64,000 nucleotides of DNA. Origin: Strigamia acuminata (taxonomy: Eukaryota). The notes under the pieces are model-generated. The model had not been told where the DNA came from, did not search any database, and saw only the letters and a list, made by a program, of their open reading frames with translations. The stretch is taken from contig OX442314.1 of the NCBI GenBank assembly GCA_949358305.1, positions 23,684,001-23,748,000 of the forward strand, given 5' to 3'. How positions within the stretch are numbered: the stretch's first letter is position 1; the number at the start of each line of letters is the position of its first letter. The translations under genes were made by a program, and so were the position numbers. Positions 11,593-63,500 of this stretch are shown here, piece after piece.

Positions 11593-14500
11593 AACATGGA
11601 AATCATAACAACAACTCCTACAAATTTTTTTCATAACAACATCCTCTTCAACCACCAACGCACACAATTCAATTCCTTCCCCCGCCCCCGAACATCTTTG
11701 TTTACTTGGCAGAAAATTTCGAAATTTCTCGGTCCGAAGGAAATTCCCCCGACCATGTATACACCCAACTTTCACAAACTTCCCTACATGTTCGCTCGCA
11801 CTGCAACATCCTCGAGAGCATCGATTTTCTGTATTCCTCATTTGCAGGAATTACATATACCAGCAGACCTCGATTTTAAAATCCCTATCAGCACAACCGG
11901 AAGTTACATTTCAATTTTAAATTTACTTCCACACAAACGCCAATTACCAGCGCAATTTTTTTTTTCGCACAATACAAAATCTTCCGGCATGTAAACTTCA
12001 ATTTTTCAATTCGCACTTAAAGAAAAAAATATTCGCAACCGAAAAAAAAAATAAAATAAAAAAAATAAAAATAAAAAAAAATAAAATTGCACGAATTATC
12101 TTCAATACCATTTTACCTTCCACCATTTCCACGTTGTGAACGTAAAAGAAAAAAAAAATACTGCAAGTCCCCTTTGGGTTAGGCTTCCGGACCTACACTT
12201 GATGCAATGCGGACGAGTCCAACGTCGAATGTCTCCAACACTTGAATTATGTAAAAAAAAAAAAAATAAGGAAACGCAGCATCCCTAAAGTGTAACCTAT
12301 GATGAAAACAAAAAAGCCAATCAGTTAATGCAACTCCAAACATAAAATTCCGAAATAAAAATATAAAAATAAAACCATCGAGGGGCCTTTGGGAGATGAA
12401 ATGGGGCCCCACAAAATCAAATATGGGCCCTGTGTGAATAAAATCATCAAAAAGCATAGATTTTCAAACATTATGCTAATTATCCGAAGGGCCCCATGCG
12501 TTGGGGCCCCCCAAACTCCAAAAAAAAATTTTTTTCAATAAAAATTTTCAAAAAAAAAATATTTTTTGACATTTTTTCCAATCAGAGCCCCAGATAAAGG
12601 GGCCACAGACAGAAACTCGCCTCCTTCCATTGTTTTGCTTCTAACTCGAGAACCCCTGGACTTTGGTAGCCCGTTTGGACTCTGTGCGCTGGCCACGAGG
12701 CGAAACGTAGGGGATTTCTACTTTAAGCGGGAATTAAAACACAAGTTGTGGAAAAATCAACAAGATAATTAAGCGTCAACAGACCGGTTTAAGAAGCTTA
12801 ACAAGGTCAATTGTGAAGCGCCATTTCTCAGTTTCGATTTCGAGCAATAGAACTTGGGAGTTTGAATTCATACGTATCGTTAACGTTAATTTCCCATGCG
12901 AAATTAAGGAATTATGATAGAATTGCGACACCTGGAAGGCGTTTTAACCCTATTCGGTGTCATAAAAATAATAAAAATCCTCGACGACGCTTTTGTTTAT
13001 GACAGGAATAAGTACCCCGTTAAAAGCTCACCAAATTGCTTTTTGCCGATTAAGATGTGAAAGGGGTTAAACTTCTTCATTTCCCTTTCATTTTTGTCAT
13101 TTTTTTCGGGTAATTTCATCGCGTATTAATGTATTATATCATCAAGTTTCTTTTTCCTTGTAGTTTGCTTCGTTTTTGTTTAGGCCTTACCGGATGAGAA
13201 TTTCCATTGTTTTTTCATTTCATTTACATAATCGATCTAATCCCGCATGAAACAAATAAGTAATCAATAACGGCCCTCTTCACTCTAGATAAACAATTTG
13301 TCTGAAGAGGATCCGTAGAGATAATTTAAAAAATGCAAGGAAAGGGAAACACGACGAGGCATGTCGCGACTCGTCTATAGCTCGCCATTGGGAAGTTGCC
13401 CTCTAGTGACAAATTGATGTAAAATTTTTAAAGTTGGCTGCTAATAAAATGTGATTTGGCTTCGATGGTTCCGATTTGTCCTTCTATGACAAATATTGAT
13501 GTTTTCGTTGAGATTGAAGGTCTTCAGATGAAAAAGACAAAATTAATTTGAAAGTCAATCATCCTCATGTTTTTTAACGGAAATAAAAAATCATAAATGA
13601 CAAATCCGGCAGTTACCGCCGTATTTAAATCGTAATAAATAAATTTCGAAAAATGGAAGGAAAATATAGACACATGTTGAATTTATTGTCACAATTTTTA
13701 ATGAAATGTACGTTATTACGGGAGATGATATTTTCATTAAGTGCTGTCGAGATTTTCATAAAGAAGCGCTTGTTCATTTGATGCACTTTATTGAAGAGGG
13801 AAATGTAGCGTGTGTCAAGAACAAATCATTCCCAAGCCTAATTGGGCTTAATCTCAACGTGCTGTGCTTAATTTGCTATGCAAATTATACCCACTGCTTT
13901 CTACCAACTGATAGCAAACAAGAATACTGAATTACAACATCCTAAAAAGACACGTTTTTAAAAAAATTTGCTGAAAAATAAATAAAAATAAACGAAAAAA
14001 TTAAAATTCCGTTTTTTTTCATGTTTTATCTTTTCCAAAAACCCAACATCCACAACCACCAGGTCATGAAGCGAAAATATACCTAAACTATATAGCAAAT
14101 ATTATCTTTCTCAAAAACTAAACTTTATGAAAATTAAAACTGCAAAATAAATGTGACGTAGAAAGAATTTAAATTTAGATTTAAATATGGGATGGGAAAT
14201 TGCCCGTGCAATTTTAAAAGCGTGCAATTTATGACTATTTTAAAACAAATCAAATTTGATACATGTGGTCTCTTCTAACTCTGTATTTATACACATGTCT
14301 AACAAATTTTCCTTTTCGATGTCTCACCTTTCGTATTTTGCATTAAAAAGTAAAATAATATCTCATAATGTATGCAATCTATCTACACAACACCGTTAAA
14401 AACCAAATTTACAATTCAACAACTTTTCGAACTGTACATTAACCTTTAAATGCATTACCGGTATTCAAATTGATCAAGAAATGTTCAATTCCTTTGTGCT

Positions 14501-34840: not shown

Positions 34841-35365
34841 TTAGAAATTTCCATTCTCTCTCAAATTCCTAAGTTCAGAGCACACACTTTTTAATTCGTT
34901 TTGTTTCGTGGCAATTTTACACAGAATTTCGAGGCTGTTTTGAAATCCAGTCTGACTTTGTCTCAAAGTACTTGGAACTAAAATTCCGAACCAGTTGAGT
35001 GGATTTTTCTCTTTTCTGGCTTCGGTTTCTTTCGCGCCACTTTTCCCTCTCCGTCTCACACCGGTCAGCTCGTCTTCCTTTTCATTTTTTGTCAGCGAAA
35101 TTAAATTAAATTCTTTGATATTTCCGGCTTCCTCTTTCGCGGATACTTTGAACAACGGTTCAATTCCCTTTTCCTCGTTCGGTAATTGGCTGATACCGAC
35201 AAATTTATTTCCAATATTGTATCGTGACTTGGCCATGTTAATAAACGCTTCTTTTAGAAGTTTATCGAGTAAACTTCGTTCTTTTATAATTTCTTCCATC
35301 AATTCTAAGCTTCTAATGGACAACGAATCCATTTTTTCTCCGATAATAGCTCGGTTAGTAGTCAT
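34841..35365 (-). CDS. CCDC115: Coiled-coil domain-containing protein 115 (Vma22 family V-ATPase assembly factor), 174 aa
   Basis: AFINMAKSRY and PLNWFGILVPSTLRQSQTGF motifs; ATG at 35365 follows a 59-nt 5'UTR intron (35374-35432). Confidence 0.9.
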   Translation of the reverse strand: MTTNRAIIGEKMDSLSIRSLELMEEIIKERSLLDKLLKEAFINMAKSRYNIGNKFVGISQLPNEEKGIEPLFKVSAKEEAGNIKEFNLISLTKNEKEDELTGVRRRGKSGAKETEARKEKNPLNWFGILVPSTLRQSQTGFQNSLEILCKIATKQNELKSVCSELRNLRENGNF

Positions 35366-35779
35366 TTTTAACCCTGAAATATTAAACAACCAATGGAAAT
35401 TAGTGCTTATCACAATGCAACACTTTACTCACCAATTAAATCGCAAAATATAGAGGCAAATTGAGTTAATTTCAGTCGTTGCTATTGGAGTTCCGCCATT
35501 TTGTGTTAGCAACGACACGAATGACCGTCAGATGTCGGGTAAAGGAAAAATGTATGTGGCTCCATCTAGTTGCAATAAATTCAACTCATTTAACAAATTA
35601 CGCGCCAAATTTAACCTCGTGCATAGAATAAAAAACGTTAACAATTATTACCGCGTACATAGCAATACTGTATTGTTTACCGATTTGTCTCAAATTTGAG
35701 TTTTCGAAATATACTCCACTTTTTAAGACAGTTATAATGTCATTTATACTTTTGTTTGTTATTTCAGTATTAACATCAA

Positions 35780-36942: not shown

Positions 36943-39900
36943 TTATTTATCCTCAAAAAAGGCGCTTTCATCGGATGATGTGTCATAATGTGCAGGATGA
37001 GTTTTTCTTTGGTGTTTACCGCTAATAAAATAAAAATAAGTAAAAACGTACAATTTGATTATCATATTCTCACCTTGACTTTTTATGACGAATTTCCAAA
37101 TTAGCCTTAATATAAGTTATAAAATCTAAAGGAGATATGTGATGAGGAATTTCTGCCGTCTTCGAGTGTTTACGCGGTCTGTATACGTATTGCTCTTTAC
37201 GAACGGGATGCACTTTGAGAGCAGAATGTCCTTTGTGGTCTCCATGTTCTCTACCGTGTGGTGTGTGTGTTCCGCTGTGGGTTCGTTTAACATGCGAGTT
37301 ATGTTTTTCTTCAGTTCCGCTTGATTCTGAATCTGAATCTGAATACTCCACTACACGTTTGTAATCTGGACGGTGATCTTTGCTTTTTTTAACATTGTGT
37401 TGTTTTTTGTGCTCAATAGCTTCACCAAAATCCATTGAGGAATCAGGATCCGTTTTAATATTTATACTTCTTCCTAATACATTCTCGGTTTTAAGCTTAG
37501 CTCCTCGCGCTTTAATAGCACTTTGCAGCAAAGCAGCCGGATCTAGAAAAATAATATAAATATAAATATAAATAGATTCAATACAAAATAATATTTTATG
37601 GTTCTTTTTTTTTCTATTTTTCATGGATTATCCAAGTGTTATCTATACCTGAGACGCCTTTCAACAAGTCAGAATCCGCTTTTAAACTTTTTCCAAGAAC
37701 ACTATCGGTACCACCTACTTTCGTTTTTATAGCAGTTGTCAGCATATTTATCGGATCTAGAAAAATAATAAACATTTATTAAGAGAGTTTATTAAAAAGT
37801 GAATAATTTTTAATTTGTAGATTTAAAAAAAAAAATTACCCCCTCGCGCTTTAATAGCACCTTGCAGCATAGCCAACGGATCTAGAAAAACAATAAACTT
37901 TTATTACAAAAAAATATTTAAAAATGTATAATTTTTAGTTTGAGGATTATAAAATAAAACAATTATGTACACTAAATCTCTACTAGCAAAATTAATTAAA
38001 TAAATGGTGAAATTTGGGGACAGCATCACACTGTCAATATAAATAAATTCAATACAAAATAATATTCCATGCGTTTTTTATACTCTACATGAATTATCTA
38101 AGAATTATCTAAACCTGAAACACCTTTCGACTCGGAATCAGTTAAACCTCTTGCAAATACATTCTCGGATCTAGCTTCTCGCGCTTGTATAGCACTTGAC
38201 AGCAAACCCACCGGATCTAGAAAAATAAGAAACATTAATTAAAAGAGTTTACTAAAAATGTATAATTTTTAATTTGTAGATTTTTAAATAAAATTATTAG
38301 GTGCACACAATCTTTACTAGTAAAATTAATTAAATTCATGGTAAAATTTGACTGACAGCATCGCGCCGTCAATATTCAGTACAAAATAATGTTTAATAAT
38401 TTATTTCTACTTTTCATGGATTATCCAAATTTTATCTATACCTGAAACACCTTTCAACAAGTTACTCGATAATCCAATGGCTTCAGAAACAGAATCTGAA
38501 TTAGGTATTAAACTTCTTGCAAATATATTCTCGGATTTAGCTTCTCGCGCTTGAAGAGCGCTTGTCAGCAAAGCCACCGGGTCTAGAAAAATAATAAACA
38601 TTTATTAAAAGAGTTTATTAAAAAACGTATTATTTTTAATTTGTAGATTTAAAAATAAAACTATTCGGTATGCACACAATCTCTACTACCGGGAGTAAAA
38701 TTAATTAAATTCAAGGTAAAATTTGGTTGACAGCATCGCGCCGTCAATATAAATAGATTCAATACAAAATAAAATTTTATGGTTTCTTTCTACTTTTCAT
38801 GGATTATCCAAGTATTATCTATACCTGAGACACCGTTCAACAGGATAGACGATGCATCCGCATTTAAACCTCTTCCAAGTACATCGGTACCAGCTACTCG
38901 CGCTTGTATAACACTTTGAAGCAAAGTCACCGGATCTAAAAAAATAATAAACATTTATTAAAAGTGTTTATTAAAAAATAAATAATTTTTAATTTGTAGA
39001 TTTAAAAAAAAATAATTACCCGCATTTCTGGCTGCTCGCGCTTGAATAGCACTATTCAGCAAAGCCGACGGATCTAGAAAAATAATAAACTTTTATTAAA
39101 AGAGTTTACTAAAAAATGTATAATTTTTAATTTGAGGGTTTTAAAATAAAATAATTATGTACACCAAATCTCTACTAGCAAAATTAATTAAATTCATGGC
39201 GAAATTTGGGGACAGCATCGCACTGTCAATAGAAATAATTTCACTATAAAATAAAATTTTATGCGTTCTTTCTACACTACATGGATTATCCAAGGATTAT
39301 CTATACCTGAGACACCTTTCAACAGATTTGTCGATTTTGCAACGGACTCGGAATCAGCTTTTAAACTTCTTGCAAATATATTATCGGGACCAGTTACTTG
39401 CGTTTGTATAGCACTTTTCAGCATAGCTATCGGACCTAGAAAAATAATAAACATTTATTAAGAGTTTATTAAAAAATGAATAATTTTTAATTTGTAGATT
39501 TAAAATAAAAATAATTACCCGAGGTTTTAGCTCGCACTTGAATAGCATTTTGCAGCATACTCAACGGATCTAGAAAAAACAATAAACTTTTATTACAAGA
39601 GAATAATAAAAATGTATAATTTTTAGTTTGAGGATTTTAAAATAAAATAATTAGCTATGCAAAATCTCTACGAGCAAAATTAATTAAATTCATGGTAAAA
39701 TTTGGGGACAGCGTCGCACTGTCAATATAAATAAATTCAATACAAAATAATATTTTATGCGTTCTTTCTACTCTACATGAATTATTCAAGAATTATCTAA
39801 ACCTGAAACACCTTTCGAATCGGTATCAGTTAAACCTCTTGCAAGTACATTCTCGGGTGCATTCTCGGGTTTAGCGTCTTCCGCTTGAATAGCGCTTGTC

Positions 39901-42900
39901 AGCAAACCCACGGGATCTAGAAAAATAATAAACATTTATTAAAAGAGTTAACTAAAAAATGTATAATTTTTTTGTAAATTTTAAAATAAAATTATTAGGT
40001 GCACACAATCTCTACTAGTAAAATTAATTAAATTCATGGTAAAATTTGACTGACAGCATCGCACCGTCAATATACATAGATTCAATACTGTGACTCTGGG
40101 GCACCGGACTTTGACCCCTGCTCTAAGTCCACTTCCCTACCATAAGGGGGGACCCCATTAATGTAATGGATTTACGGATTGGCTCTCGTAAATCTACATT
40201 GTTCGCCATCTTGTTTGACCTGTAATAAATTAGTATTTTGCTGTTTTCTAACATGCACATACGTAACTGACTCACAAGAACAAAATAATGTTTGATAATT
40301 TATTTCTACTTTTCATGTATTATCCAAGTATTATCTATACCTGCAACATCTTTCAACAGGTTATTCGATGATGCTATTGATGCAGCGGATGCAGCGGATT
40401 CAGCGGGTGCAGCGGGTGCAGCGGGTGCAGCGGATGCAGCGGAATTGAAAGCAGGATCGATTTTAGCCGATGTTGCTATTGATGCTATTCCAACGGATTT
40501 GGAATCAGAACCAATTTTAATATTTATACCTCTTCCAAGTACATTATTGGTACTAGCTTCTCGCGCTTGAATAGCACTTGTCAGCAAAGCCAGCGGATCT
40601 AGAAAAATAAGAAACATTTATTAAAAGAGTTTACTAAAAAAATGTATAATTTTTAATTTGTAGATTTTAAAATAAAATTATTAGGTGCACACAATCTCTA
40701 CTAGTAAAATTAATTAAAGTTATGATAAAATTTGGCTGACAGCATCGCGCCGTCAATATTCAGTACAAAATAATGTTTAATAATTTATTTCTACTTTTCG
40801 TGGATTATCCAAATATTATCTTTACCTGAAACACCTTTCAACAAGTTACTCGAATCAGAATCCGTTTTAATATTTATTCCTCTTCCAAGTATATCATCGG
40901 TACTACCTAGTTTCGCTTGTATAGCACTTGTCAGCAAAGTCACCGGAGCTAGAAAAATAATAAACATTCATTAAAAGAGTTTATTGAAAAATGAATAATT
41001 TGTAATTTTTAAATTTAAAAAAAAAAATAATTACTCTTGGCTTTAGCTTCTCGCGCTTCAATAGCACTAGTCAGCAAAGCCTCCGGATCTAGAAAAATAA
41101 TAAACTTTTATTACAAGAGAATAATAAAAAATGTATAATTTTTAATTTGAGGAGTTTAAATTAAAATAATTATGTACACCAAATCTCTACTAGCAAAATT
41201 AATTAAATTCATGGCGAAATTTGGGGACAGCATCGCACTGTCAATATAAATAACTTCAATACAAAATAAAATTTTATGCGTTCTTTCTACTCTACATGGA
41301 TTATCCAAAAATTATCTATACCTGAGACGCCTTTCAACAGGTTAGTCGATGTTGCTAGTGATGCTATTCCAACGGAATTGGGATCAGAACCCAATTTAAT
41401 ATTTATACCTCTTCCAAGTACATTATCGTTTCCAGCTGCTCGCGCTTGAATAGCATTTTGCAGCAAAGCCAACGGATCTAGAAAAACAATAAATTTTTAT
41501 TAAAAGAGAATATTAAAAAATGTATAATTTTTAATTTGAGGATTTTAAAATAAAATGATTATGTACCCAAAATCTCTACTAGTAAAATTAATTAAATATA
41601 TGGGAAAATTTGGACGACGGCATCGCATTGTCAATATAAATAAATTCAATACTAAAGGATATTTTATGCATTCTTTATACTCTACATGGATTATCCAAGT
41701 ATTATCTACCTGAGATGCCTTGCACATCGGTCTCTGGAATTTTCTTAAATAGTAGAAATATATTGATAATTACAAATAGGCAACTACAATACATTAAGTT
41801 AGTTACTTTTTGTGACTCGGAATTTGGATTCGATTTACTACTTCCTAACTCTGTATTGTATAAACATTTATTATGCGTTCTTCTATTTTTAGTTGATTAC
41901 TTAAGTGTTATCTATACCTGAGCCGCCTTTGTTCGTGTTCATCCGTAATGAATTTCCACCCCCGTCTCCATGATGACTTTTCTTAAACATTAGAAATAAA
42001 TTTATTAAGAAATTAGCAACTACAACATACTCGTATATAATTAATTAGGTACTTTTTTTGATCTACCGCCTAATCCTAAAAGCAAAAAAAATTGTTAAAA
42101 ACATTATTAATATCTTTGTGTTGTACTGCCAATACTCACCATCACCAAACTTTTTTTTAATTCGATCTTTTGCACTGGCCAACTAGTTAAACAAATATAC
42201 AAATGTATATAAATATAAAAAAAATTAAAATTATATTTTATACTTACCGCGCCTTTAATTCCTGCTAGTGGTGAGAATTTGCCACCTGCACCAAAAATGT
42301 ATTACTCGATTTACTTTTATTAAAATGTTTATTTGTATTGTACAATACATACCTTTCGGTTTATCCTGCTTAAAAAAAAGTTACAAAATAAATTAAAGTC
42401 ATATATTAATACTGTCCATGTTGTATTATATTTACGCCTTTATCTACAGCAGCAACATCTGGTGTGCCAGTTGGTACTACGGGTGTTTCTGGTGCACTTG
42501 CCTTAGCACCGAGTGGCCCTGCCAGACCATAATCTTGTCGTTAAAGTTATATACGCTACTTACTTTCATACCACATTCGAGAGAAAAAAACCATTTAGCT
42601 ATTTCCACTCAAATTTGGTTGATCCCCTTGAATCTCACAATTGAACATAATGGAGCCATTCGGCCCCGCATTAAAGACCCAATATTTTGCAAAGGGGGCC
42701 CCAAACAAAAATAAAAATCAACATGTCCAAACTAACTGGGCCCTGCAATTGCTAATGCCGGTCCTATTTTTAGCTTACCAAAATTTTCTTTGTCACCGGG
42801 TTGGGGGTCAGCTCCTACAGCCTGTCGATTAATTTTCAGAATATATTCACCGTATTATTTCAATTTACGTATTTACCTGCAATAGAAGAATCGTTGGAAT

Positions 42901-45495: not shown

Positions 45496-45631
45496 GCATG
45501 AGATTTGACTCACGATTGCACGAGATTTGACTCACGATTGCACGAGATTTGACTCACGATTGCATGAGATTTGACTCAGGATTGCATGAGATTTGACTCA
45601 CGATTGCATGAGATTTGACTCAAGATTGCAC
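45496..45631. repeat. 22-bp minisatellite x6
   Basis: (gagatttgactcacgattgcay)6 within a larger repeat-like region at about 45050-46250. Confidence 0.9.
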
Positions 45632-48567: not shown

Positions 48568-51500
48568 ATGATTCATATCTATTTTATGGTTTTTCTTCTC
48601 GGCTTTATAGCATATCAATCGGAAGTAAGTAACTTATAATTTTTACTTTTAAAGATCATTTCATTGATATTTTAATGTTTCTGAATTTAATAGTCACAAG
48701 CGGAAAAGTTACAATTGCCAGTAAGTATATATAATTAATTAATTTACACAGAAATTGAATGGTTACAATAGATACATTATAAATATTTTTTAGCTATGGG
48801 CAATTTTGAAGAGAAATAGCAAGTTTGATGAGGATGGCTTTCGAATCTGGGAACAAGACATTGTCTTGCATGGAAAGAATAAAGAGAACGTTGCTTTCTC
48901 CGAAAGAACTGCGCGGAAAAACCTGAATTCCAGATGGCCTCAAGGAATAATTCCTTACAAGATAGATCCATCGTGTAAGATTTAAAACCCCTATTCATAG
49001 TATTTGCAAATGGTAATAAATTCAAACATTATAATAACAAATAGAGTTCTATATTATTATACGAGATAAAAACCTATTAGTAAGCAAATTGGCACGCTCA
49101 AGGTTTTCCATCCGTATACGATGTCACAACTTGAATTTGTTACCATACTCAACAATCAACTGAAATTGAGAATATTACCTCACAGTTAATTTCTTTATGT
49201 TTATCAAGTTTTTATTGATTTTTAGTAAACCAAAAAGAAAGTAGAAGTGCAATCAGTCAAGCCATGCAATTATGGATGGATAACACTTGTGTCGTATTTT
49301 CCAATTCACCAAATATACGTGATAAACCACACTTAGTGTTAAAGCATACGGGGACGGGGTAAACTTTACCTCAATTTTACTCTAGAATTTACATTTATAT
49401 TTTTATCATTTCTTATTCTAGATGCAATTCTTGGGTTGGTATCTACGATGAACATACTACCGATCAGACTGTATCACTTGATCAACCTGGTTGTTCAACA
49501 TCTGTAAGTAATATTAATATCAAGAAGTAATATTAATGATCAAATACAGTGAGCAACGTGTGGTAGTATTGAATCAGAATCAGAAAATACAGTACTTCAT
49601 CGCATTCACAGGTACCAGTTGTCGCCCACGAATTAGCTCACGCCATTGGATTATGGCATGAACAAGATCGTTTAGACCGTGACACTTACTTGAATGTTTA
49701 CAAGAACAACATGGGTGAAAACATTGTTTATTTCGAAACTGCCAATGACGATGTAATGAATTATGACGTACCATACGAATATTCATCACTTATGCAATAT
49801 TCACCAGATGTAGGTTAAGTATAAACCAATCGACTTAAATTTTACTTTCTCAAAATTTGATACTCCGTATTATTGATATTTTGAAATAGGCTTACACCGG
49901 TAATGGTAAGCTTACTCTTGTTCCAAAAGATCCATTGGCTTTCCCATTAATGGGAGGTGCAACAAAGATTACGTATCTGGACTATAAATTGGTTAATCGA
50001 ATGTATAACTGCTCAAGTACAAATTCTACAACATTTCATAAATAATCATGACTGTATATAAATATTTTTTTCTTGGATTAACAGATAAATGCCAAAATCC
50101 CCCTACTTGTCAAAATGGTGGTTATGCCGCATGGAATAATCTAAAAGGCTGTCGATGTGAATGTCCTCCTGGATTTTCTGGTTCCAACTGCCAAACCAAA
50201 GTGCCTGTTGGTATGATTGAGCCCCCCCTCATCATTCCTCCTCTAAATTAGAGCAAAAAATTATGTTTTCAGAACCTCCTTGCGGTGGAAGAATTACAGC
50301 TCCAACTCGGATTCAAAGTCCTAATTACCCCAATAATCATCCTGCAGGTCTGCGATGTGCTTGGCTCATTGAGGTACCGTAATTACGCAACATATGCGAA
50401 TAAATTTTACGAGTGTGGTGACCCAGTTGGATAAGTGTCCCCCCAGGGCGGATACTTGTCCTATGAGTCACTATGATTAAAGAGTCGTTCCCCCCCGAGT
50501 TGGCTCCACCTCCCCATGGCAGGTGTGTGCCCCGAGGGGGAGGAAGCGGCTGGTGGTCAGCCCCCATTGGTTGATCGCCGGCCCTTCACCCCACTGCATA
50601 AAAGGCTGTGTTTCCCGCCTAAAGACAGAACTTACACAAACGACACCAAGAACACAGCAACTACCTCACCGTCAGGCCAACTTCAACTACAAGTTAGGAT
50701 TGATCGAGGATCGCTGAGTAAAGTGCAAACTGTAACTCTCACGAAGTCACTTGCGAGCTATTCCTGCGAAAGCACGAGAATAGCCCTTGTGAAATCACCC
50801 AGAATAATCGCCCAGACGATTATTCGCCGAAGTAAGTGTCCGAGTGCTTTGTAGGGAACCCCAAAGTTCCTAGACGAGGCCTCTGCGACGCTAAACAAAC
50901 CCTAGACAACAGGCACGGATAGAAGACTCGAAAGAGCATTCCACCGCGTCCGTGAAGACGAATCCGTGACGAATTAACGACAACTCGAGACGCCGCCTTT
51001 GTTCCGCCGACCACGCGGAATCGACGACGCCATCTTGAGAAATCCTTTGTTCGACGCTGACCACGTCGACTCTAGAATTATTACTGAGTGTATTTTAAAG
51101 GCATAAAGCCTGGTGAATAAATTACCTGTTTATTTACATACATTTGGTATTCATTTGGGTATTTACATAATTGATCACAGGTAAAGTATTACACGTTAGC
51201 GCTATTTAAACCTATACCAAGTAGGACGCGACACGTGGGGGCCTGTCCGGGATTTAGAAATAAATCTCAAATCTGAACTTGTGATCTCTCAATAAGATAA
51301 CCCAAACCGTAGAATTACCGAAAGAAAATGTCAGACAAAGATGAGCAATCCACGTCTGACACCGAGCAGAGAATGCCCGAGAAGGGAAAAAGGACCTCCG
51401 ACTACCACCTAAGGTCGGATGGTCCCGTCCCTGAAATGTCCGCAAAGGCGAAAGCCCGAGCGAATAAAAGGAGAGCGAAGGCGCAGAAAGAGGAGCAAGC

Positions 51501-54500
51501 TGCATCGCTCGCGGCCCTAGACGGGCCAGAGCGAGAGCGGGTTCCCTTGAATATGCAACCCTTCGAGGATACCGATCCGGAAGCCATAGAAAATCGAGAA
51601 GAAATTCGCGACGTATCGCCAGGACGAGTATCGATATTGATGACCGAGGAGACGAACGAAGCTCCGAAAATAACGGTCACGGTCGGCACGAACCCATCGC
51701 CACCCACGGCTCAGACGTCCGTGGAGCAAACCCCACGAAAAAACGACGGCGGGACCCCGATAACCCCCCGAGTTACGGCGAGTCCTGCGGTTGTTTCCTT
51801 CGAGGTATCTCACCTAATTCGGTTGACACGGCAAGCTGCCCAACTGAAAGCGATGATAGACATTCCAGTAGGAACGTCAGTCTGGGAATCGATTACTCTA
51901 CTCACTGACGCTATCTGCGCGGCACAAGCCCCGACGCCGGTCGCAAGACCAGCAGCGGAGACGCCCATGCCCCAGGTAACGCCCAGTGACACCGGAGGTT
52001 TCGCGCCAGACCCCAACCGAACACTTCACGAATCCAGAGAGAAGGCCCGCGAGGAAGCCAGACAAGAAGCGACTAGTCGCCAACGAAGGCTGAGCGCAGA
52101 GCGGCGAGAACTCTGGAAGGAAGAGGAAGAAAGGGAGCAACGCGAGAGAAGAACCACCGAGAGAACAGAGAAACTGGTCCAAAAAATGAGGGAAGAACGA
52201 GAAGCTAAAATTCGAAAAGAATGGAACGCAACAGTAGAAGGGCGACATCGAGAAGCTCAAGAGTACGAGGACCAATTTCAAGCGCTAATAGCTCAAAGAA
52301 AAACAGAAAAACTACAAATGTTGCGAAAAGAGGCCATTCTACAACATCAGAAATGGGAAGAACAACATCGCGAGAGGTTGAGAGAAGAGGAAGCCAGAAA
52401 AGAAAAAGAACAGTTTCTGAAAGAGAAAGAAGAGTGGGATCGAGTCAGATGGACCGAAGAGTACAAAGCGAAGAAACAAGCTATAATAGATGAGCAAAAA
52501 AGATGGGAAGCCGAAAACTGGGAGAAGGAGACAGAAAAGTTCCAGAAAGAGTACGCACAAGACGTCTCGGACAGGAAGAAAAATGAAGAAAACCTGAAAC
52601 GGAAACCAGAACCCCCCAGCGGCTCTGATACCGACACAGGAGAAGGTGCAACAAAGCCGGCAAAAACGGCGAAAAGGGGGAAATCTCAAAAGAGAGACGA
52701 GTCGGTCCCAAAAACAAAGGACCGTCACCCCTCAAAAAGATCCGAGACGGGAGCAGCCATCGACGCGTTACTCGAAAAGAAAAACGCAAATAAAAATCGG
52801 GAACGCCCCGAAAGCGAGGAAAACAGATGGCATTCTTTTTACGAGAACAACGACGGAGGGGAGCCGCCGCCATCCGGAGGCTCGAAACAGAAGAAGGCTG
52901 GCGGAGAGACCCCACCGAGAGGGCCGAGGTTTCACCCCCAAGGAGATCCCTCCGAGCCCTCCGATTCGTCGGACGACGACCATCCGAGTCGACCGTCTAC
53001 AGGGAGGAGTCAAGAAGACAGCGATGGGCACCGGTCGAACCGGCCGAATGCTTCAGACCGCTCCTCCCGGAGCTCCAACCCTCGTTCGGAGGAAGGGAAC
53101 TTTCAGGACTCATCTGGCCGACATTACACGATGTCTGAGCTAGGCCGAGCCCTGCTGAACTCTTTCAGAAGAGAAGGAATCGATCTAGGCCATCCAGGCG
53201 ACGAACATAATCGCGCTGGAGAGAGGGTTAAGCGTAAATATGGCGTACGAAACGAACCAAGCAGCGAAGCCACGGGTAACATCCGTTGGCAACACTACAT
53301 ACAAACACGATTCGACGGTTCGTGGAAGGCCGGAGACCGCTTCCTAGACGAAGTAATGCGTATCAAGAAAGCGACAAAAGCCACCGTCGCCGACATGCTA
53401 ACCCACGGTCTAGTGGAGCTAACCACGGGGTCAGCTCGAGAATGGTATCAGGGACTGAAAAACCCAACCTGGGACGATTTTCTCGTCCGTTTCGATCTCC
53501 GATACGGCGAGACTCCAGACGAGATCAGTAACAAATTACGTGGTCTACGGCAAGCCCCAGGAGAAACATTAGCCGACTACGACGCCCGAGCGAAACTCCT
53601 GTTTGCAAGAGCGCCGTACGAAATAAACCCCGCTGGTTTTACGATGATCTTTTACGGAGGATTATCGGCCCACTCGCAAAGAATTCTGCTAGACATGCGT
53701 GCACCCCGCACTGGCGATTACCAAGATGTCAGTAACTATCTTCTAACAAACACGTTAGAAATAGAACAGCGGTATTACGCCACTCTGCCCCCGGAAGAAG
53801 CTGACGCGCACGAGAAGCGGTTGCAGACGAGCGCCGAACGCCACAAGACCTCAGAAAAATTAATGAGGCCAAGTGAATATTTGAGCGGCATAATGAGTCT
53901 CACCGAAGCATCCTTCGGACGAATGCTGACGCCTAAAGCAGGCAGTATTCTTCCAGCCAACCCGATAGCTGCCCCAAAGAAAGCACCGGCAGCAACGGCG
54001 ATGCAGGTGACCTCGACGGACTCCACCCAGATGGAGAAAGTCGAAGAGACAACACCTCTCGCCACGGCTAAAGAAGAGGAGCCAGCATCAAGCGACGAGG
54101 AAGCCCTAAATGAGCACCTCGAAAACTTGTCGACGGGATGCGACGATCAAGGTCCCTATTTGCACCATGCACACCGGGCCTTGGCAATCGCACAATTCAG
54201 GGCACACGTGCAGGCAACAAAAGCGAGAGGGGCATTGGGAGGAAAAAGACGATTCCCGACGCCCTTCGTCCCGAAAAAACCGGGATTCACTCCCACAGGG
54301 GATAAAAGTAACATCAAATGTTACAGCTGTGGAGAATACGGCCACTACTCAGATAAATGTGAGAAAACCGTCAAAGAAAAGGACATCATGCAAACCATGA
54401 TGAAAATGATGATGGAGTTAAGAACTGATCTGGCAAAAAACTTCCAAGCGCAGGCGTCGCCGAAATAAATTCAGCTTCGTCTGCGCCAGCCGCGGAAATT

Positions 54501-57500
54501 AAAAAGAAGAAATATCACACTGGACCCGCAGGTCATGCCTTGGCAGAGGCACAGATCAAAGACCGCATACAGATCGTTCCGAAGAAGGAGGAAAAAGTGA
54601 CGTTAACGAGTATGCAAGTGAGAACGAAACCGGAGGTCGACATGGATTGGACGGACCTTCCGTTCAATCTGGAGGTTGAGCCCCAGACATTACGCGTATT
54701 TCACTGCAATGTCACGAAAGCACATTGCGAAACTCTGTGTATGCTGCCAGTGGAGATAGAAAACCAAAAATTGTTCGGTCTACTGGATTCAGGAGCGGAT
54801 CGTTCATTCATATCCGAAGATATAGTAAAAGACTTGGATATTGGAAAGAAGGTGGCACAAGTGAACGCGAACGTAGAATTGCTCACCGCCAACGGCTACG
54901 TCAAGCCGAAGGGCGTAGTTCGCATCATGATCGACTGGACGGGGGGGAACCTGTCCCACCCCTTCATAGTCTTGCCATCCCACGACAAAGTATTCCTCCT
55001 AGGGATGGACATCATGGCGAAACTGAAAATTCAGCCAAACCCGATAACCCGTTCATGGAACTGGATAAGTCCCGAGGGAGAACGGTCAGTCCCCGTAGTT
55101 CCCCAAAAATTACTGGACGAAGCCAAGGACAAAGAGGAATACGGAAGAGGATTGCGAAAATTCGTCCAAGATTACGATTTCGCAGCCTTCACTCTGGAAT
55201 TACAGAGGAGTAACGTCGTGGACACCCTGGTCGAGGAGGCAGCACTGCGTGTTAACGAGGCATCGCTACTAAGGCGAGTGCTTCGAAAGCATGAAAGAAT
55301 TCTGACCAAGACACCTGGTCGAACGACGGAAGCAACACACGAAATAGTCTTAACCACAGACAAGCCGATTCGAGTGCCTTACAAGGGGATGAACCCCCAG
55401 AAAAGAGACATCGTGACGCAAATGTGCCAAGACATGCTCGACAAGGGCATAGTAACGCAAGCCCTGGGCGAATACGCCATGCGGATCGTCCTGGTGATGC
55501 GTCCAGGCTCGGAACCTCGACTATGCATTGATTATCGCCCCCTGAACGCGATAACGGTTATAGACCCGATTCAGATGCCGTCTATAGACTCGATCCTCCG
55601 GGAACTGAGCCCGTTCAAGTGGGTAACCACCATGGACCTGTCAAAGGGGTATTGGCAAGTGGAGCTAAAACCCGAAGACAAACTAAAAACGGCTTTCTAC
55701 TCCCCGATAGGAAGACTAATGTTCAACGTGATGCCGTTCGGGCTTGTAAACGCCCCGAGCACGTTCCAGAAACTGATCGAAAGCGTGTTGGGAGATATGC
55801 TGCACGACTTCGTGTGGGCGTATCTCGACGACATAATAATAACGTCGGACACATTCGAAGAGCATATAGACCACATCGACAGAGTGGTCTCCCGCCTAGC
55901 CAAGGCAGGACTCCACATCCATCCAGGGAAGAGCAAGTTTTGCAGGAAAGAGCTTGCCTTCCTAGGATATCGAATAGGAGTCGAGGGAATCGCGATTGAC
56001 CCCGAAAAAGTCAAAGCAATAAACGGATTCCCCGCCCCCGAAGATATAAAAGGTGTCCAGAGATTCATGGGCATGGTCAATTTCTTCGGCCGACTACTCT
56101 CTGGTCTGGCTGAAGTGGCCGCGCCTATAACGGATCTCTTACGAACGGATAAAGAGTTTGAGTGGACGGTCCAGTGCGAGGCCGCATTTAGCACTATCAA
56201 GCAAATGCTGGCTGACGTCGAAAAGATGCCATTGCCGGACCTAAACCGACCGTTCGTGTTGCACACCGACGCGAGTAAAATCGGACTGGGTGCAGCCCTT
56301 CTGCAGACCCACGTGTACAACGGAATCTCGCAAGAAGTACCCTGTATGTTTATAAGCAGAAAAATACAGGGCGCGGAGAAAAATTATACGGCAACGGAAC
56401 TAGAATGCCTAGCCGTAATTTGGGCAGTTCGAAAATTTCGCGACTATCTGGAGTACACGAACTTCGAGGTTCAGACAGATCACCAGGCACTAAGCTGGTT
56501 GATGAAGCTCAAGGAACCTTCCGGCCGACTCGCAAGATGGCAACTGGAGTTAATGGCGTGCGATATAACAATTACGTACCGCCCCGGGAAGTACAATCAT
56601 GTGGCCGACGCCCTCTCAAGAGCCCCAGCCTCTGACCCCCAGGGACCAGACGACGACGGCGAGGACGACACCCACCTCTTGTACTGCCCAACTCCACGCA
56701 GAATATGGCGCTTACGAAAAGCAAACGAACTGCCGGTGATGGAGCCTGAAGATAGAACGTTTTGCGGTTTTTGGACTCGAACATACCAGCCAGCTGGGAC
56801 AAACAATTCAACATCCGAAATTCAATCTCCGCCCCCCGGAGAAACCCACAAAACACTACTACGCGCCTTCACAGCAAAAATTGAAGAAAAAACGCAATAT
56901 GCTCCACCCACGAGACGTGAGTTCGTCGAACACCAGGCAGCAGACACAAAATGTCAAATTATAACACAATATTTGCTGAACGGCGAATTTCCGGAAGGGA
57001 TGACAAACCCACACCGCCGGAAACAGTTCGTCAAAGAAGCAACAAGCTACCTCATAGATGATGAACTCCTGGTAAAATACCACCCGACATTTCAAGATGA
57101 CCTCAGTGGAGCGGGAAACTCGGTGAAAGTGGTCGTACCGGCATCACTGCACAACCGACTGTTGTGGCTGATGCACGGACACCCGCTCGCCAGCCATTCT
57201 GGCGTGGCGAGGACCCTTTATCGAGTAAAACAACTTTTCTTCTGGCCGGGCGCGCGGCAAAAGATAACGAAATTTATCCGACACTGCCCCCGGTGCCAAG
57301 CATGCAGACCGCGAGATAAAGTAGCCAGAAACGCCATGTCTCTCGGACCCTACGCACCGTTTGACTGCTTAAGCATAGACTTGATGGGCCCCAAGCCCAC
57401 AACGGGAAACAAGAACATGTATATTCTCGTAATTATGGACGTGGCCACCCGATGGCCGGAGCTGTACGCCCTCGCGAAGCCCTCGGCTGAAAACATAGTC

Positions 57501-60500
57501 GAGTGCCTTTACGACGTGGCAATGCGATTTGGGTTTCCCAGAAAACTCATTTCGGATAACGGCCCCCAATTCCGATCGAGAATATATAAGGACTTCTGTA
57601 GAAAATTTAAAATGGATGCATCAAACACCTCCACGTATAATCCTCAGACAAACCCAGTCGAGAGATTAAATAAAGACATAAAATATGCGCTGACAGTATT
57701 CACCGATATTCACAATCGATGGGACGAATACCTGCGAGAAATCGCTTTCAGCATTCGCTCAACCGTGTCAAGAACACGCGAATTCTCACCGGCGTACCTC
57801 AACTTCGCCCGCGAATTAAGGATGCCATGGGACCCACGCGTTGCCGAAGCTGTTAACGTATTAGACCCGTCGAGCCCACATGAGTACGTGTGCCGGTTGG
57901 AACAGACTATATCCGACACGTACCAGCATATGATGGCGCATATTTTCAACATGAGAGAGAGAATCGCAGATAAAGAAGGCGATCTCGCTTTCGCGAACTT
58001 TAAAGTGAATGATCTAGTGTGGAAGGAGGCACACACGTTGTCCAATGCAGCGAGGGGCATCGCCGCCGGTTTAGCCGACAAGAGGGACGGTCCCTACGTA
58101 ATTGTGGCCGAACACGGAGGCAACGCATACCAACTACGCCGCCTAGAGGACAACAAAAATTTTCAGTCGATACATGGCCGAGATCTAAGGCCATATCTGC
58201 CAGAATTTCCACAGGAAATTTGGCTGGAAGGTCAGACACACAGCGGCCAAGGGGGCACCGTGGTCGACACGTTCCAAAAAACAAATGAAGCTGAAAATAT
58301 AGCGGAGAGCGAGGATGAATTCTTCGACGCCGAATCCCCAGCCGACGAGGCTCCAGCTCAGCCGGAGCAAGCAATTTCGGAGAGGGAGGAAGCAGAAGAA
58401 TGTACTTCTGAAATGGAAAATAAAAAAATTAATAATGAGAAAAATGCCAACACATCGGAGATGAACGAGCAAGTAGAGTCACGATCTACGAGCACGTCGA
58501 AAATCAACCTTCGACCACGACGAAGCAATAATCCGTTCATTCGGGACGGCAAAGTCGTGGGGAAGAACTAAAAATAAAAGAAAATGTGATAACATGGAGC
58601 GGAGGCCTTGTAAAATAAAAAGATTTACTTACGAGAGCTGCTGCACATGTTGAGACGCGAAAATTTGGCTAAGTCCAAACTTCGCAACGAATTGTCGCAG
58701 TCACCACTAACAGACGAGAAGTTATGACGTATCGGGCGACCACGTGACAATGAAACCACGCGGTCGACCCCGTAGCGTCATTGCCAGCACGGCGGATCTC
58801 GCAAAATACGAGACGCGTTCGAGACCCACAATTCTCAGCGTCGATGGGCCCAGTTTCCGACTGTTTTTAACACGACGAGACGTGTTTTTTGCTTCTCCCC
58901 AAAGAGAAAACAAAGACCTCTCAAAAAACTTCACTTTCCTAAATTGAAATGGCCGATCGACGCAACCCACGATTAGAGCCGAGCGCATCGTCGAGAGACG
59001 AGAGCGACGGCCTAATCGTAAATGCAGAAGAAGATGAGAATTGGGACGAACAACCGCCGCTGCAGGTAAATTAGTGTGATTTCCCCAGAGAAATCACATA
59101 ATTCTTTGAATCTGTTGCATCCAACCCAGATTGGAGCGTGACTTGTGACTGATATATTTCTTTCTGTTTTATTGTTGATTTAAGGCTGGCTAAAAACCCG
59201 AGAGTGGACCCAGATTCACCTCGGAGTCAAGGCCGCCAAAAAACTAGAACAAAGGAAGTGTTCGCGGAATGGCGTCGTGGCAAACCAAAACCAAAACTAA
59301 AGGTTTTCTTTCTTTTAAATTTAAACATCGTAATAAATTAAAATACGATTAGAGTTAAAATAAAAAAGTTTAACGTAAGAAATTAAAATTTAACGATCGG
59401 TTTTGCCTGCGACCCCTTCCAAAAAAGCGGATCACCTGAGTTCAAAAGTAGTGTTGGATCAGCGCTACGACGGCGGAGATCATCGCAGAACTGCGAAACA
59501 AGAAAATAAGACCGACGGCCGCAACAAAAGAAAGGAGTTGCTGCCACCGTCGATCTTGAGCATATTTCTGATCCCCATCGTTAACTGGGATTTATTATAT
59601 TAATCTTGTGATCTAAAATTATTCAGGTCGACCCGCTAGAATCGTGGGACGCCCTGCCTCCGACGGCGTCAACCGCCAACAACATCTTTCGCGGAGCCCT
59701 GCCGATTTACCTGCGGCAGGCCTATCCTGCAGAGACCAGCGCCTGGAAAATCCGATTGATGTATTCCAGGACCCTCGAGGAAAAATTCGAGCGATCAAAA
59801 ACGCTGGTCGAGTGCATGACGAAGGAGATGAGGGAGCGAGTGGGGCCGCGGATCCCACCCGATGCGGATCCGCCGAGCCCCGTTTACTCCGGGTACCTGG
59901 AAGAGGCTTACCCAGGCACGGTGGCCGAGCTGCACACCTCCCATAGGTGGAGCGAGGCCCCGACCTTGGCAGCCCGCCAGAGAATAGTGGACGACGAGAT
60001 CAAACGCTTAAAGCGCACCGAGACTCACGGAGTAACCCGAGTTCTCGAGAGAAACGGTTTCTCCCCCGAAGAAATCCGTAGATGGCTTCGCGACATCGAA
60101 GAAAATCATCTGACACCCAGATGGATACCGCCGGCGAATTTTACGGCCACGCAGTCTGAGATGTGGCAGTTATACCACGCTGGTATCCTGGGAAGTCGCC
60201 GCCATCACAGAAGATCGAAGCGTCCGGCGGAGTCCGCCCCACGCGGACCCGCACGAAGAAGACAGGCCGTCTCCCCAACAGAGGCCGGCCCGTCAACGAG
60301 TCGCGACTACCGCAGCCGCTCGAGCAGCTCCAGTTCCCGAACTCGAGTTGTCGTGCGCTCGGAGTGTCGCCGAGTAGTAACGCTCGAGCCTGCCTCGCCA
60401 GACGACGCGCGGGCTGAGCGAACAGTCGAATCTTCCGCCCACTGGGCTGCGAGGACCGAGACACACCAAGATCGAGGAAAGAAAAGATCCTCGTTGTTCA

Positions 60501-63500
60501 TGGCGATTACCACACAGTCGTCAGATCAATCCTCGTCGCGACGAACCGTCTCATCACACCAGAGACCGAATTCTCCGACGGACGTCCCCCAGAGGACGGC
60601 CCAACGAAGATCCGTCGCAGCCAGCACCCGGAGGAATCGAAAGCGCAAAGTACGTCAGAAGTTGCGAGCACAATCCCTGATAGCTAAGGGATTAGAGAAG
60701 GAGCGAGAGATGGCCGCCGCGAAACGGTCCGAACCCCAGAGTCTCGGACCCACGGCTGGACCGTCCAGGCGCCAAGCAGAGATTGATTTGGGAGAGTTGA
60801 CGGAAGAGCAAATGTCCCCAGATGAGTCGGACAAAGATGGGCCGGTTACAAAACAGGATCTGGCCGTAGCATTGAAGAACGCCTTCCGAGGATACGCGGC
60901 CAACCGGCCGTCGGGCTCAACACCGGCTGTGCCCACCGCGCTTGTGCCCCCACAAGTGCAATCGCGATGGCCGCCACTCCTCGAGGGTACAAACCCAGCC
61001 GTGACCGCTTGGACCCCTCCCCGGATGATTCCGGTGGGGGATCCAGCTCCGAAGCGGGTCAGATACGATAATCTACCCGGGCTGGGCCGTCCACCGTCAC
61101 CCCCAACGCCACGAGTGTGTCGACCTTATCGCAACGCCGAATGGTACGCCCAGCGAGAGATGGACGCTCGATGCCGGCGTGAAGCGGCCTATCCCCCACT
61201 CAGCGAGTTACAAGAATATCTGGCCGAATACGAGAACCCCGCGATTGCCGAGTTGGCCATACGACAGGCCGACGCCGCCCAAACTCACCACATCAACTGG
61301 GCGATCGAACAGATGCGGACGTTGTCACAGCAATTCAGTGACAATCCGGACCGCGCTCACCCCTGCCATCGGAGCAGTTTGAATTTGGCTGTGACGAACG
61401 TACTGGCCCAGCTGCTATCCCTGGGCGTCTTCTTGGACAGTCGGCAAGCTATGGCGGCCTGGACAATCGTCGACCGTGAGGGAGTTCACCTTCCTCGGGC
61501 GTTGTACCAGGTATGGGCCGGATGGACTCCTGAGCCCGCCTCGCTGCGCTTCGACCTGGCCAGAAATACGGAAAACCCAGGCCTACAGTTTTCAAAGATG
61601 CGTTCGTTGGCATTCCGCTACCGGAACCCCGGAGTCCACCCTTCCTTGTTGCGAACAATTCGGGAGGTTCCGGAGATACCGGGAACGGCGGCGAGCCTTC
61701 CACAGGCCATCGAGACCGCCCCCCCAGAGGCGGCGGTCCAACCATACATACCGACCCCAAAGCCGGTATTCCCGAAGGAGAAGCGACACGCGAATCGACC
61801 CATATTGATTCCGAAGCGTTCCAAGCGAGGACCCCGAACTCCTCCGCTGCCCTCTCCTTCACCACCAGCGGCAGGGCTGGCCGCTCTCTCTGCAGAGCCG
61901 GCTACGCCACCGTTGGAGAGCCCAATGGAGATTCCGCTCCCACCATCGCCTCCGCCGCCCCCAGCAGCGCAGCTTTATTTGAGGCTGGGAGTGGAATACC
62001 CCTTCCTTCAGATGTCGGAGTTCACGCGACAACGCATCATTGACTCCGACGATCACGGCGAATCAATCCTCAAATGGCTAAACAGAGAAGCCCGATCCAC
62101 CATGGACGCCGTCTTCCATCGCCGTATCCTACGGGCCCACAGGAAACCCGGATCGAGCGCCGAGTCGCGAAGGATCCGACTCGTCCCCGATCGATTCCCC
62201 GCGTCTACCCGGATTTGGATCCATGAGCGTACGGGGTTGGTTGGCGAGCCAGCCGGCAGTCACCCGCAGTACTTCATCAACGAGCGACAAAATCCTGCGG
62301 ATCTGACAACCTCTCTGCCCCCGGATTTACCACCGCCGCCACCGGCAGTGCCACCCGTGATCCTCCGCCCATGCAGAGGAGTGCTGCCGGCTCTTCGCAG
62401 AGGAGAGCGATGAGAAAATTGAGATCGCTCCGATCCGAGATCGAAGCTGGAGGAGGGACGTGTGGTGACCCAGTTGGATAAGTGTCCCCCCAGGGCGGAT
62501 ACTTGTCCTATGAGTCACTATGATTAAAGAGTCGTTCCCCCCCGAGTTGGCTCCACCTCCCCATGGCAGGTGTGTGCCCCGAGGGGGAGGAAGCGGCTGG
62601 TGGTCAGCCCCCATTGGTTGATCGCCGGCCCTTCACCCCACTGCATAAAAGGCTGTGTTTCCCGCCTAAAGACAGAACTTACACAAACGACACCAAGAAC
62701 ACAGCAACTACCTCACCGTCAGGCCAACTTCAACTACAAGTTAGGATTGATCGAGGATCGCTGAGTAAAGTGCAAACTGTAACTCTCACGAAGTCACTTG
62801 CGAGCTATTCCTGCGAAAGCACGAGAATAGCCCTTGTGAAATCACCCAGAATAATCGCCCAGACGATTATTCGCCGAAGTAAGTGTCCGAGTGCTTTGTA
62901 GGGAACCCCAAAGTTCCTAGACGAGGCCTCTGCGACGCTAAACAAACCCTAGACAACAGGCACGGATAGAAGACTCGAAAGAGCATTCCACCGCGTCCGT
63001 GAAGACGAATCCGTGACGAATTAACGACAACTCGAGACGCCGCCTTTGTTCCGCCGACCACGCGGAATCGACGACGCCATCTTGAGAAATCCTTTGTTCG
63101 ACGCTGACCACGTCGACTCTAGAATTATTACTGAGTGTATTTTAAAGGCATAAAGCCTGGTGAATAAATTACCTGTTTATTTACATACATTTGGTATTCA
63201 TTTGGGTATTTACATAATTGATCACAGGTAAAGTATTACACGTTAGCGCTATTTAAACCTATACCAAGTAGGACGCGACACGAGAAACTAGGATACCATA
63301 TAAAATCTTATTTGTGTTGTACCAGGCTCCTCGTGGCAAAGTCCCTTCACTCTCCTTTCATGATTTTAATCTCATGGTACGTGCAGGAGATGACAACCAG
63401 TGTTACTGGAGTTCCTTACGCATAAGAAATGGAGATCCATTGAATGATGATCCTGGTGAAATGTATGAATTAATACCGAATTCAATGGATATGAATTTGT

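Follow-up and report, generated by a model that had tools for sequence, protein, structure and literature searches.

An Orphan Third Gene under Purifying Selection in a Recently Inserted Ty3/Gypsy Retrotransposon of Strigamia acuminata

The DNA considered here is a stretch of 64,000 nucleotides from Strigamia acuminata (assembly GCA_949358305.1, contig OX442314.1, positions 23,684,001 to 23,748,000), referred to below as the window; coordinates are those of the window, and features lie on its forward strand unless marked (-). It holds a retrotransposon of the Ty3/gypsy type with long terminal repeats (LTRs), in which the position usual for env is occupied by a long open reading frame (ORF), here called ORF3, with the properties of a non-Env accessory gene.

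Structure of the Element

The insertion comprises 12,867 bp with a GC content of ∼50–60%, set in a host background of ∼33% GC, and it is bracketed by the two copies (50410..50413 and 63281..63284) of a 4-bp target site duplication, CGAG. The 5' LTR (820 bp, TG...CA, 50414..51233) looked identical to the 3' LTR (62461..63280) in the original prediction, and the two indeed have 0 mismatches. The element is intact and was inserted recently, and no second copy of it occurs within the window. Its primer binding site (PBS, 51236..51253) starts 2 nt past the 5' LTR, and its polypurine tract (PPT) is found at 62443..62458. The first gene, gag (51328..54468), encodes 1046 aa ending in a C-terminal CCHC knuckle, for which the Pfam zf-CCHC match has an E value of 0.002, below the curated cut-off, while no capsid family was detected in gag by Pfam. 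Its N-terminal half (51328–53100) is of unusual length and includes both a charged stretch resembling a coiled coil and a Ser-rich region of acidic character. The pol frame (54429..58571) encodes protease (PR), reverse transcriptase (RT), RNase H (RH), and integrase (IN), identified by Pfam and arranged in Ty3/gypsy order. It overlaps gag in the -1 frame at an A AAA AAC heptamer (54435–54441), which forms with a predicted hairpin (z -2.55) a candidate signal at 54435..54488, and -1 frameshifting from gag into pol is likely at this site. LTRs, PBS, and PPT surround an internal region with gag followed by PR-RT-RH-IN, and under ICTV criteria (PMC7879559) the element is a member of the Metaviridae.

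Regarding signals for expression, the 5' LTR carries a TATA-like sequence at 50597, an AATAAA at 51116, and donor-like splice sites at 50832 and 51181; if the first two are used, the R region would be ∼500 nt long (50626–51135). The leader contains no ATG from 50517 up to the start of gag, and gag itself carries a donor-like site of phase 0 at 51976.

The Third Open Reading Frame

The original prediction described a stop-free frame of about 930 codons between pol and the PPT, and placed the gene at 58949..62413. The length was right, since the frame measures 933 codons from stop to stop, but it extends from 59612 to 62413, ending ∼30 nt upstream of the PPT, and position 58949 opens a separate ATG frame of 39 codons. 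Within the long frame, the first in-frame ATG is at 59759, where the context is poor, with neither a purine at -3 nor a G at +4. The part treated below as the main exon of ORF3 (59627..62413) has 928 codons plus the stop, and residue numbers are counted from 59627. The remaining five frames across this interval hold 14–25 stops each, and for this reason, together with the purifying selection described next, the frame is not attributed to chance.

Selection among Family Copies

Variation within the family was followed in three public runs of one organism, of which X1 and X2 belong to one study and X3 to another; the window itself may come from one of the three. Each of the 30 bins, for the element and for ORF3 alike, is covered by short variant contigs, which number in the thousands. 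This is the pattern expected of a multi-copy family, the contig depth being no copy number. Among the 42 distinct ORF3 variants listed, 28 are synonymous, 14 are missense, and none introduces a stop; the synonymous share of 28/42 compares with an expectation of 30% for mutations of these types (p 1.4e-6) and corresponds to a pN/pS of ∼0.22. The listed variants of gag (10/15 synonymous, pN/pS 0.21) and of pol (8/8 synonymous) give comparison values for the other genes, and the same 42 ORF3 variants read in the other two forward frames are synonymous in only 8/42 and 5/42 cases. By region, the listed synonymous counts are 5/10 in the N-terminal block, 6/9 in the linker, 6/6 in the central block, 3/6 in the Pro-rich arm, 7/10 in the C-terminal block, and 1/1 in the tail; the 44 codons upstream of ATG 59759 have two synonymous variants and one missense variant listed. 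ORF3 is therefore under purifying selection. A dN/dS comparison of family copies had been proposed at the outset, and its outcome is a ratio that is not near 1, with no frameshift among the listed variants.

The 12 of 14 insertions and deletions (indels) listed over 58800–62460 fall in the spacer after pol (4), in a candidate intron described below (6), and at or just past the stop (2), with none in the candidate first exon or in the ORF3 body; the non-coding parts are homopolymer-rich, so that this contrast is partly mutational. In addition, low-depth contigs that are ∼80–87% alike represent a diverged subfamily that also bears ORF3, some with gaps that may or may not keep the frame, and X6 yielded a single contig with a 35-nt match to ORF3. 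On the other side of the balance, these counts come from the best-supported 40 rows of each variant table, with 473 and 159 further rows beyond them, and parts of ORF3 are missing from a few contigs of low depth, for example through deletions of 61621–61751 and 62235–62399.

Given these data, it is scarcely credible that ORF3 is a non-functional open frame or the passenger sequence of one copy. The high GC content (∼60%) makes chance frames longer, which speaks for that explanation, but the length of the frame against the stops in every other one, the selection on it, and the cover of the whole ORF by contigs of runs from two studies speak against it, and on the variants listed it is refuted.

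A Candidate Two-Exon Gene

The 39-codon frame at 58949 acquires meaning if it is taken as a predicted first coding exon (58949..59065) that ends at CAG|GTAAAT in phase 0 and is followed by a predicted AT-rich GT-AG intron of 561 nt (59066..59626). The acceptor at 59626 is a T-rich CAG|G, and because donor and acceptor share phase 0, removal of the intron would join the two frames into a protein of ∼967 aa. We consider this structure probable from several features of the sequence. The ATG at 58949 stands in a strong context, with a purine at -3 and a G at +4; an ad hoc filter for T-rich YAG sites picks out 2 in the 12-kb element, the acceptor among them, while the donor, at 59065, is one of 10 donor-like sites listed in it; and by a post hoc test, 1.4% of 2000 spacer shuffles produce an ATG frame of at least 30 codons that ends at a donor of this kind. 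Moreover, the only listed variant of the mini-exon is a first-position synonymous change, the listed indels flank it on both sides with none within, and diverged contigs in X1 and X3 begin matching at 59622, 5 bases before the start of the main exon, with unrelated sequence upstream. The encoded peptide would be strongly acidic (28% Asp plus Glu, pI 4.1).

Three observations weigh against this arrangement. A predicted stem-loop (z -3.1) takes in the mini-exon and could by itself account for the scarcity of variants there, with no need for coding; translation in the diverged lineage could begin at in-frame ATGs that its contigs have just before 59622, no splicing being required; and the ORF3 acceptor could pair as readily with the gag donor at 51976, whose phase also agrees. 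The variant contigs contain no 59065/59627 junction, an absence that has no bearing on whether the message is spliced. As to how the mini-exon is reached, splicing from the leader (donor 50832 or 51181) could serve, as could a promoter inside the element. A doubly spliced message is possible because of the ATG-free leader and its donor-like sites, although the sole acceptor candidate upstream of 58949, an AAG at 58904 that closes a pyrimidine tract, is weak. The tax/rex and tat/rev messages of retroviruses have this form, in which a large exon follows a short one that supplies the ATG.

The ORF3 Protein

The 928-aa protein encoded by the main exon contains 12% Pro and 12% Arg, has a pI of 10.2, and includes 6 Cys (0.6%) and one N-glycosylation sequon. 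Runs with Arg or Lys at four of five residues number 9, against 1.9 in shuffled sequences (P 0.006), and occur at residues 126, 195, 283, 335–343, and 730; K[KR]x[KR] motifs number 3 against 0.64 (P 0.022). Arg-rich tracts like those of nuclear localization signals (NLS) or RNA-binding proteins are accordingly present as sequence motifs. The three basic tracts and the poly-Pro runs quoted in the original prediction are all there. It also described Ser/Arg-rich linkers, but RS/SR dipeptides (22 against 18.6 from the composition of the protein itself) are not enriched. Other motifs not above chance in ORF3 are leucine-rich nuclear export signals (NES), PxVxL, GW/WG, S/T-P, PPxY, and PTAP. Two YPxL motifs (61190–61201 and 61997–62008) were counted against 0.18 expected (uncorrected P 0.014), with none in gag.

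An AlphaFold model built from the single sequence has a mean predicted local distance difference test score (pLDDT) of 42, with about three quarters of the model below 50, and is helical at residues 17–184, 328–365, and 504–666. When modeled alone, the central block (504–666) reaches a mean pLDDT of 54, with 51 residues of a helical bundle exceeding 70. Where about three folded segments had been anticipated, the modeling gives two helical blocks and one long helix (328–365), and the third such segment, at about 790–890, has no confident model.

Searches for relatives were word-seeded or rest on these weak models, and they returned no homolog. There was no family in Pfam for whole ORF3 or for the three blocks, no match among the sequences of the PDB, and no usable match in the ESM Atlas for the whole protein; for the central block, the best ESM Atlas score was 0.76, to a bacterial DUF3471 protein, under the chance level of 0.8. 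Word-seeded searches of 5.8 billion clustered proteins, with ORF3 at near lengths and with residues 490–700 at shorter lengths, gave no match, nor did IMG/VR and metagenome contigs, a tblastn search of 85 fetched loci, the element's own gag and pol, or 120 Pol-like proteins. PHROGs offered one sub-threshold helix-turn-helix match (E 0.061). In fold searches, the whole model had a best E value of 0.87 against the PDB, and the central block retrieved generic helical bundles from the PDB (best Z 7.8) and nothing from BFVD. A BFVD match of the whole model to a Wsv161-like nimavirus protein (E 4e-4) was rejected as an artifact of disorder, the TM score being 0.08 and the root-mean-square deviation 42. 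ORF3 is provisionally an orphan by these searches, as first thought, the Pfam and AlphaFold/fold checks having produced no Env, no fusogen, and no described ORF3. Full-text literature searches brought up no description of the element or of the protein, Repbase, Dfam, and most subscription journals lying outside that scope, and the ORF3 protein itself looks new.

Comparison with Env Proteins

In errantiviruses the third ORF encodes a membrane protein whose structured, Cys-bridged ectodomain lies between a signal peptide and a transmembrane segment, according to the published descriptions (PMC13524379). ORF3 shares with these proteins, which are of the F type or the HSV/gB type (PMC13524379, PMC7879559), its position as third ORF and a likely spliced expression; as far as those accounts go, it differs in having no signal peptide, no convincing transmembrane anchor, no Cys-bridged ectodomain, and no fold match. 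A hydropathy scan of the three possible starts of ORF3 detected no hydrophobic signal-peptide core (9-residue maxima 0.29, 1.07, and 0.31), and this, with the few Cys residues and the single sequon, bears out the expectation that neither a signal peptide nor a Cys-rich ectodomain is present. The statement that the protein lacks a transmembrane anchor is nearly right, but residues 585–603 form one marginal hydrophobic helix with a Kyte-Doolittle (KD) value of 1.75, reached by 7% of the 120 Pol-like proteins. For comparison, an env-like control ORF in locus L028 has a KD value of 2.86, and the sums on a membrane insertion scale are -3.2 for the control and +3.7 for segment 585–603.

The control (L028:5723–8569) belongs to a distant gypsy element and is itself worth noting as a 948-codon ORF with a hydrophobic N-terminus, furin-like sites, and transmembrane segments, to which Pfam assigns only a weak DUF7708 match.

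Might ORF3 nonetheless be a highly diverged Env or a small fusogen? Its position, its likely spliced message, four RxK/RR furin-like sites together with the mildly hydrophobic helix, and the fact that an equally favorable segment on the insertion scale is found in only 3% of the Pol-like proteins would suit such a protein. The candidate membrane segment is nevertheless in mid-protein and far from the value of the control, the signal-peptide core is missing, the composition is basic and poor in Cys and sequons, and most of the model is of a pLDDT unlike that of structured errantivirus ectodomains; fold searches found no F-type or gB-type fusogen either, with models of low confidence. We judge this explanation highly improbable, and the view of ORF3 as a functional, selected non-Env accessory gene stands. 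The case illustrates that position alone is no ground for naming a long third ORF env.

Related Elements and Their Third Open Reading Frames

The RT-RNase H region of the element has at most 46% identity to any match, and its named RT neighbors come mostly from animals. A FastTree phylogeny of 188 sequences gives the element a long branch (0.94) and groups it in a 19-member clade with local support of 0.96; an earlier tree placed an insect clade among the nearest neighbors, the named proteins of the sister clade coming from ant, wasp, and firefly. The trees were built without a named Osvaldo, Ulysses, or Woot reference. The element presumably resembles the Osvaldo/Woot group in its motifs, and its PBS is one that we take to be tRNA-Pro-like. 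Insect elements of the Osvaldo/Woot group are described as having long LTRs, a 4-bp duplication, and a size of 10–13 kb, all as here; the Osvaldo-like elements of Culex differ in that all those described prime on tRNA-Lys (PMC3286476). The PBS motif is absent from 7 text supplements of PMC13524379, which may hold sequences in another form.

Twelve loci of the clade were compared, and in five of them (L001, L002, L006, L012, and L047) the sequence continues for more than 1200 nt past the integrase match. All five carry a sense ORF of 263–439 codons after pol, without a transmembrane segment (KD at most 1.08), without a Pfam family, and without BLAST similarity to ORF3 or to each other; in L006, L012, and L047 it overlaps the end of pol. 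The other seven loci end too soon, with L007, L008, L009, and L041 leaving only 310–660 nt after pol. Basic non-Env ORFs thus recur after pol in the clade, whether or not they are homologous.

Among side observations on these loci, L001, L006, L012, L047, and L010 have sense ORFs of 260–440 codons after pol that are basic, rich in Pro and Ser, and without a Pfam family, with a CCHC-type ORF further downstream in L010. In L002 (6409–9406), a basic Pro-rich ORF after pol is followed by an ORF for an Rrp6-like 3'-5' exonuclease (PF01612, E 1e-31) that continues past one stop; no LTR pair was seen there, so that it may or may not belong to the element, and it resembles the DEDDy ORF3s of rotifers.

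Third ORFs other than env are already known from Cer1 CERV, bdelloid ORF3s, and plant aORFs, as far as these sources describe them. The bdelloid elements Juno and Vesta have, like the present one, a family-specific non-Env third ORF after pol, but those described encode DEDDy exonucleases, GDSL esterases, and small transmembrane or coiled-coil proteins (PMC5408684), whereas ORF3 matches no family. Plant aORF-3S share with ORF3 the position between pol and the 3' LTR, the sense orientation, conservation across copies, an obscure origin, and, in some cases, splicing; the sense aORFs are reported to be mostly "env-like" with transmembrane segments (PMC7264820), in contrast to the basic and soluble ORF3.

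Proposed Functions

How unspliced RNA is exported or silencing is evaded has been worked out for few LTR retrotransposons, and CERV is the single element-encoded export factor found in the literature searched. It is a 517-aa nuclear orphan protein of the Caenorhabditis elegans element Cer1, made from a spliced mRNA and composed of folded domains and flexible linkers; in a cerv stop mutant the nuclear foci of genomic RNA are kept while cytoplasmic genomic RNA and Gag are lost (PMC10309623, PMC3315495, for these and the preceding properties as published). By description, ORF3 and CERV are alike as orphan accessory proteins of Ty3/gypsy elements that are spliced (likely so for ORF3), carry basic or NLS-like tracts, and have domains between linkers. 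They differ in that CERV shares exons and frame with gag and has a Cys loop, a G-protein-like domain, and a demonstrated export role (PMC10309623), whereas ORF3 lies wholly after pol, has 6 scattered Cys with no evident counterpart of the Cys loop, and is predicted to have all-helical blocks. CERV nonetheless seems the closest functional model for ORF3. The original prediction of a "complex" invertebrate retrotransposon is upheld as far as a selected non-Env accessory gene is concerned, but the Rev-like Ty3/gypsy idea is not new, CERV having been published (PMC10309623).

Unspliced RNA has to leave the nucleus even where an element possesses real splice sites, and our tentative reading, which is more of a working proposal than a conviction, is that ORF3 may be a Rev/CERV-like nuclear factor for export of unspliced genomic RNA. 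The spliced ORF3 message would be exported and translated first, and the protein would enter the nucleus by way of its Arg/Lys tracts, with which it would also bind the intron-containing RNA of the element, the conserved helical block (residues 504–666) serving as a scaffold; by promoting export or blocking default splicing, ORF3 would then allow Gag and Gag-Pol to be made. Several observations weigh against this proposal. Rev-type factors are far smaller than the ∼930–970 aa of ORF3, and CERV, with the length given above from its published description, is far smaller too. Neither homology nor fold searches linked ORF3 to Rev, Rex, or CERV, the last being considered by description only. The NES matches number 4 against 5.2 in shuffled sequences, and three of them overlap a predicted buried helix (589–600). 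Windows of predicted RNA structure with z at or below -3 amount to 2/8 in the spacer plus intron, 6/26 in gag, 5/34 in pol, and 2/35 in the host flank, so that the spacer and intron are no more strongly structured than gag and no response element stands out. Finally, basic disordered proteins would fit transcription or chromatin roles equally well.

Long hairpins are predicted just past the pol stop (58586–58655) and in the candidate intron (59150–59260), the windows folded having z -4.0 and -2.2, respectively. As they do not exceed the general level of the element in control windows, a reading of the spacer hairpins as similar to a Rev response element was dropped, and there was no Rfam match.

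Transcription or chromatin is the setting of another explanation, on the unlikely side though not far behind the export proposal, by which ORF3 is an activator or anti-silencing factor that would maintain expression of the family by binding to the LTR or to LTR chromatin, on the model of Tax, Tas, and VANC-type proteins. The NLS-like tracts, the Pro-rich disordered arms, the acidity of the candidate first exon, which activation domains often share, and a family of many related copies with a very young insertion would all suit it; no DNA-binding or chromatin-reader domain was detected in Pfam, PDB sequences, or fold searches, beyond the sub-threshold helix-turn-helix match, and PxVxL and GW/WG motifs are at chance level. 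ORF3 could instead be a cofactor associated with the particle, either a scaffold packaged with Gag or a Gag(1–216)-ORF3 fusion made through donor 51976, which would aid assembly, nuclear entry, integration targeting, or vesicle release. The phase of that donor agrees with the ORF3 acceptor, and CERV is described as sharing its N-terminus with Gag likewise (PMC10309623), but a Gln-Val codon pair alone yields CAG|GT, which makes the phase match weak. Similarly, the YPxL excess concerns one of 12 motifs and is lost after correction for 12 tests, and Pfam finds no chromodomain or other targeting domain; this explanation appears rather improbable.

A captured host or viral gene, possibly an enzyme, diverged beyond recognition and acting on host defense, is quite unlikely as the origin of ORF3. 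Rotifer LTR elements are documented as holding captured DEDDy and GDSL ORF3s (PMC5408684), L002 in the same RT clade has its exonuclease ORF downstream of pol, and the intron could be a relic of capture. The two word-seeded searches of the clustered proteins gave no match, however, and the predicted blocks, in models of low confidence, are all-helical without an alpha/beta enzyme core; the Pfam scan that detects PF01612 in L002 finds no DEDDy or GDSL enzyme in ORF3 or its blocks.

Returning to the Rev/CERV-like proposal, a wider version of it, which we regard as doubtful, would have a regulatory gene that is spliced more than once arise in the env slot of a complex Ty3/gypsy element, independently of retroviruses and of Cer1. 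ORF3 would then represent a new family that switches expression from spliced to unspliced RNA, and the post-pol ORFs of the five clade-mates would be fast-evolving counterparts of it, the trait being lineage-wide. A large selected orphan, candidate exons, and a young insertion come together in this element and make it a test case for the question whether Rev-like or anti-silencing functions have originated more than once among Ty3/gypsy elements.

Neighboring Host Sequence

Elsewhere in the window, a host CCDC115/Vma22 gene (34841–35428 (-); PF21730, E 1e-16), which marks the sequence as eukaryotic, is apparently intronless, and a His/Lys-rich open frame of 185 codons without a Pfam family (37070–37627 (-)) is possibly a host exon. 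Tandem arrays are located at 38544–41930, 45496–45630, and 11088–11604, with periods of ∼496, 22, and 21 bp, respectively.

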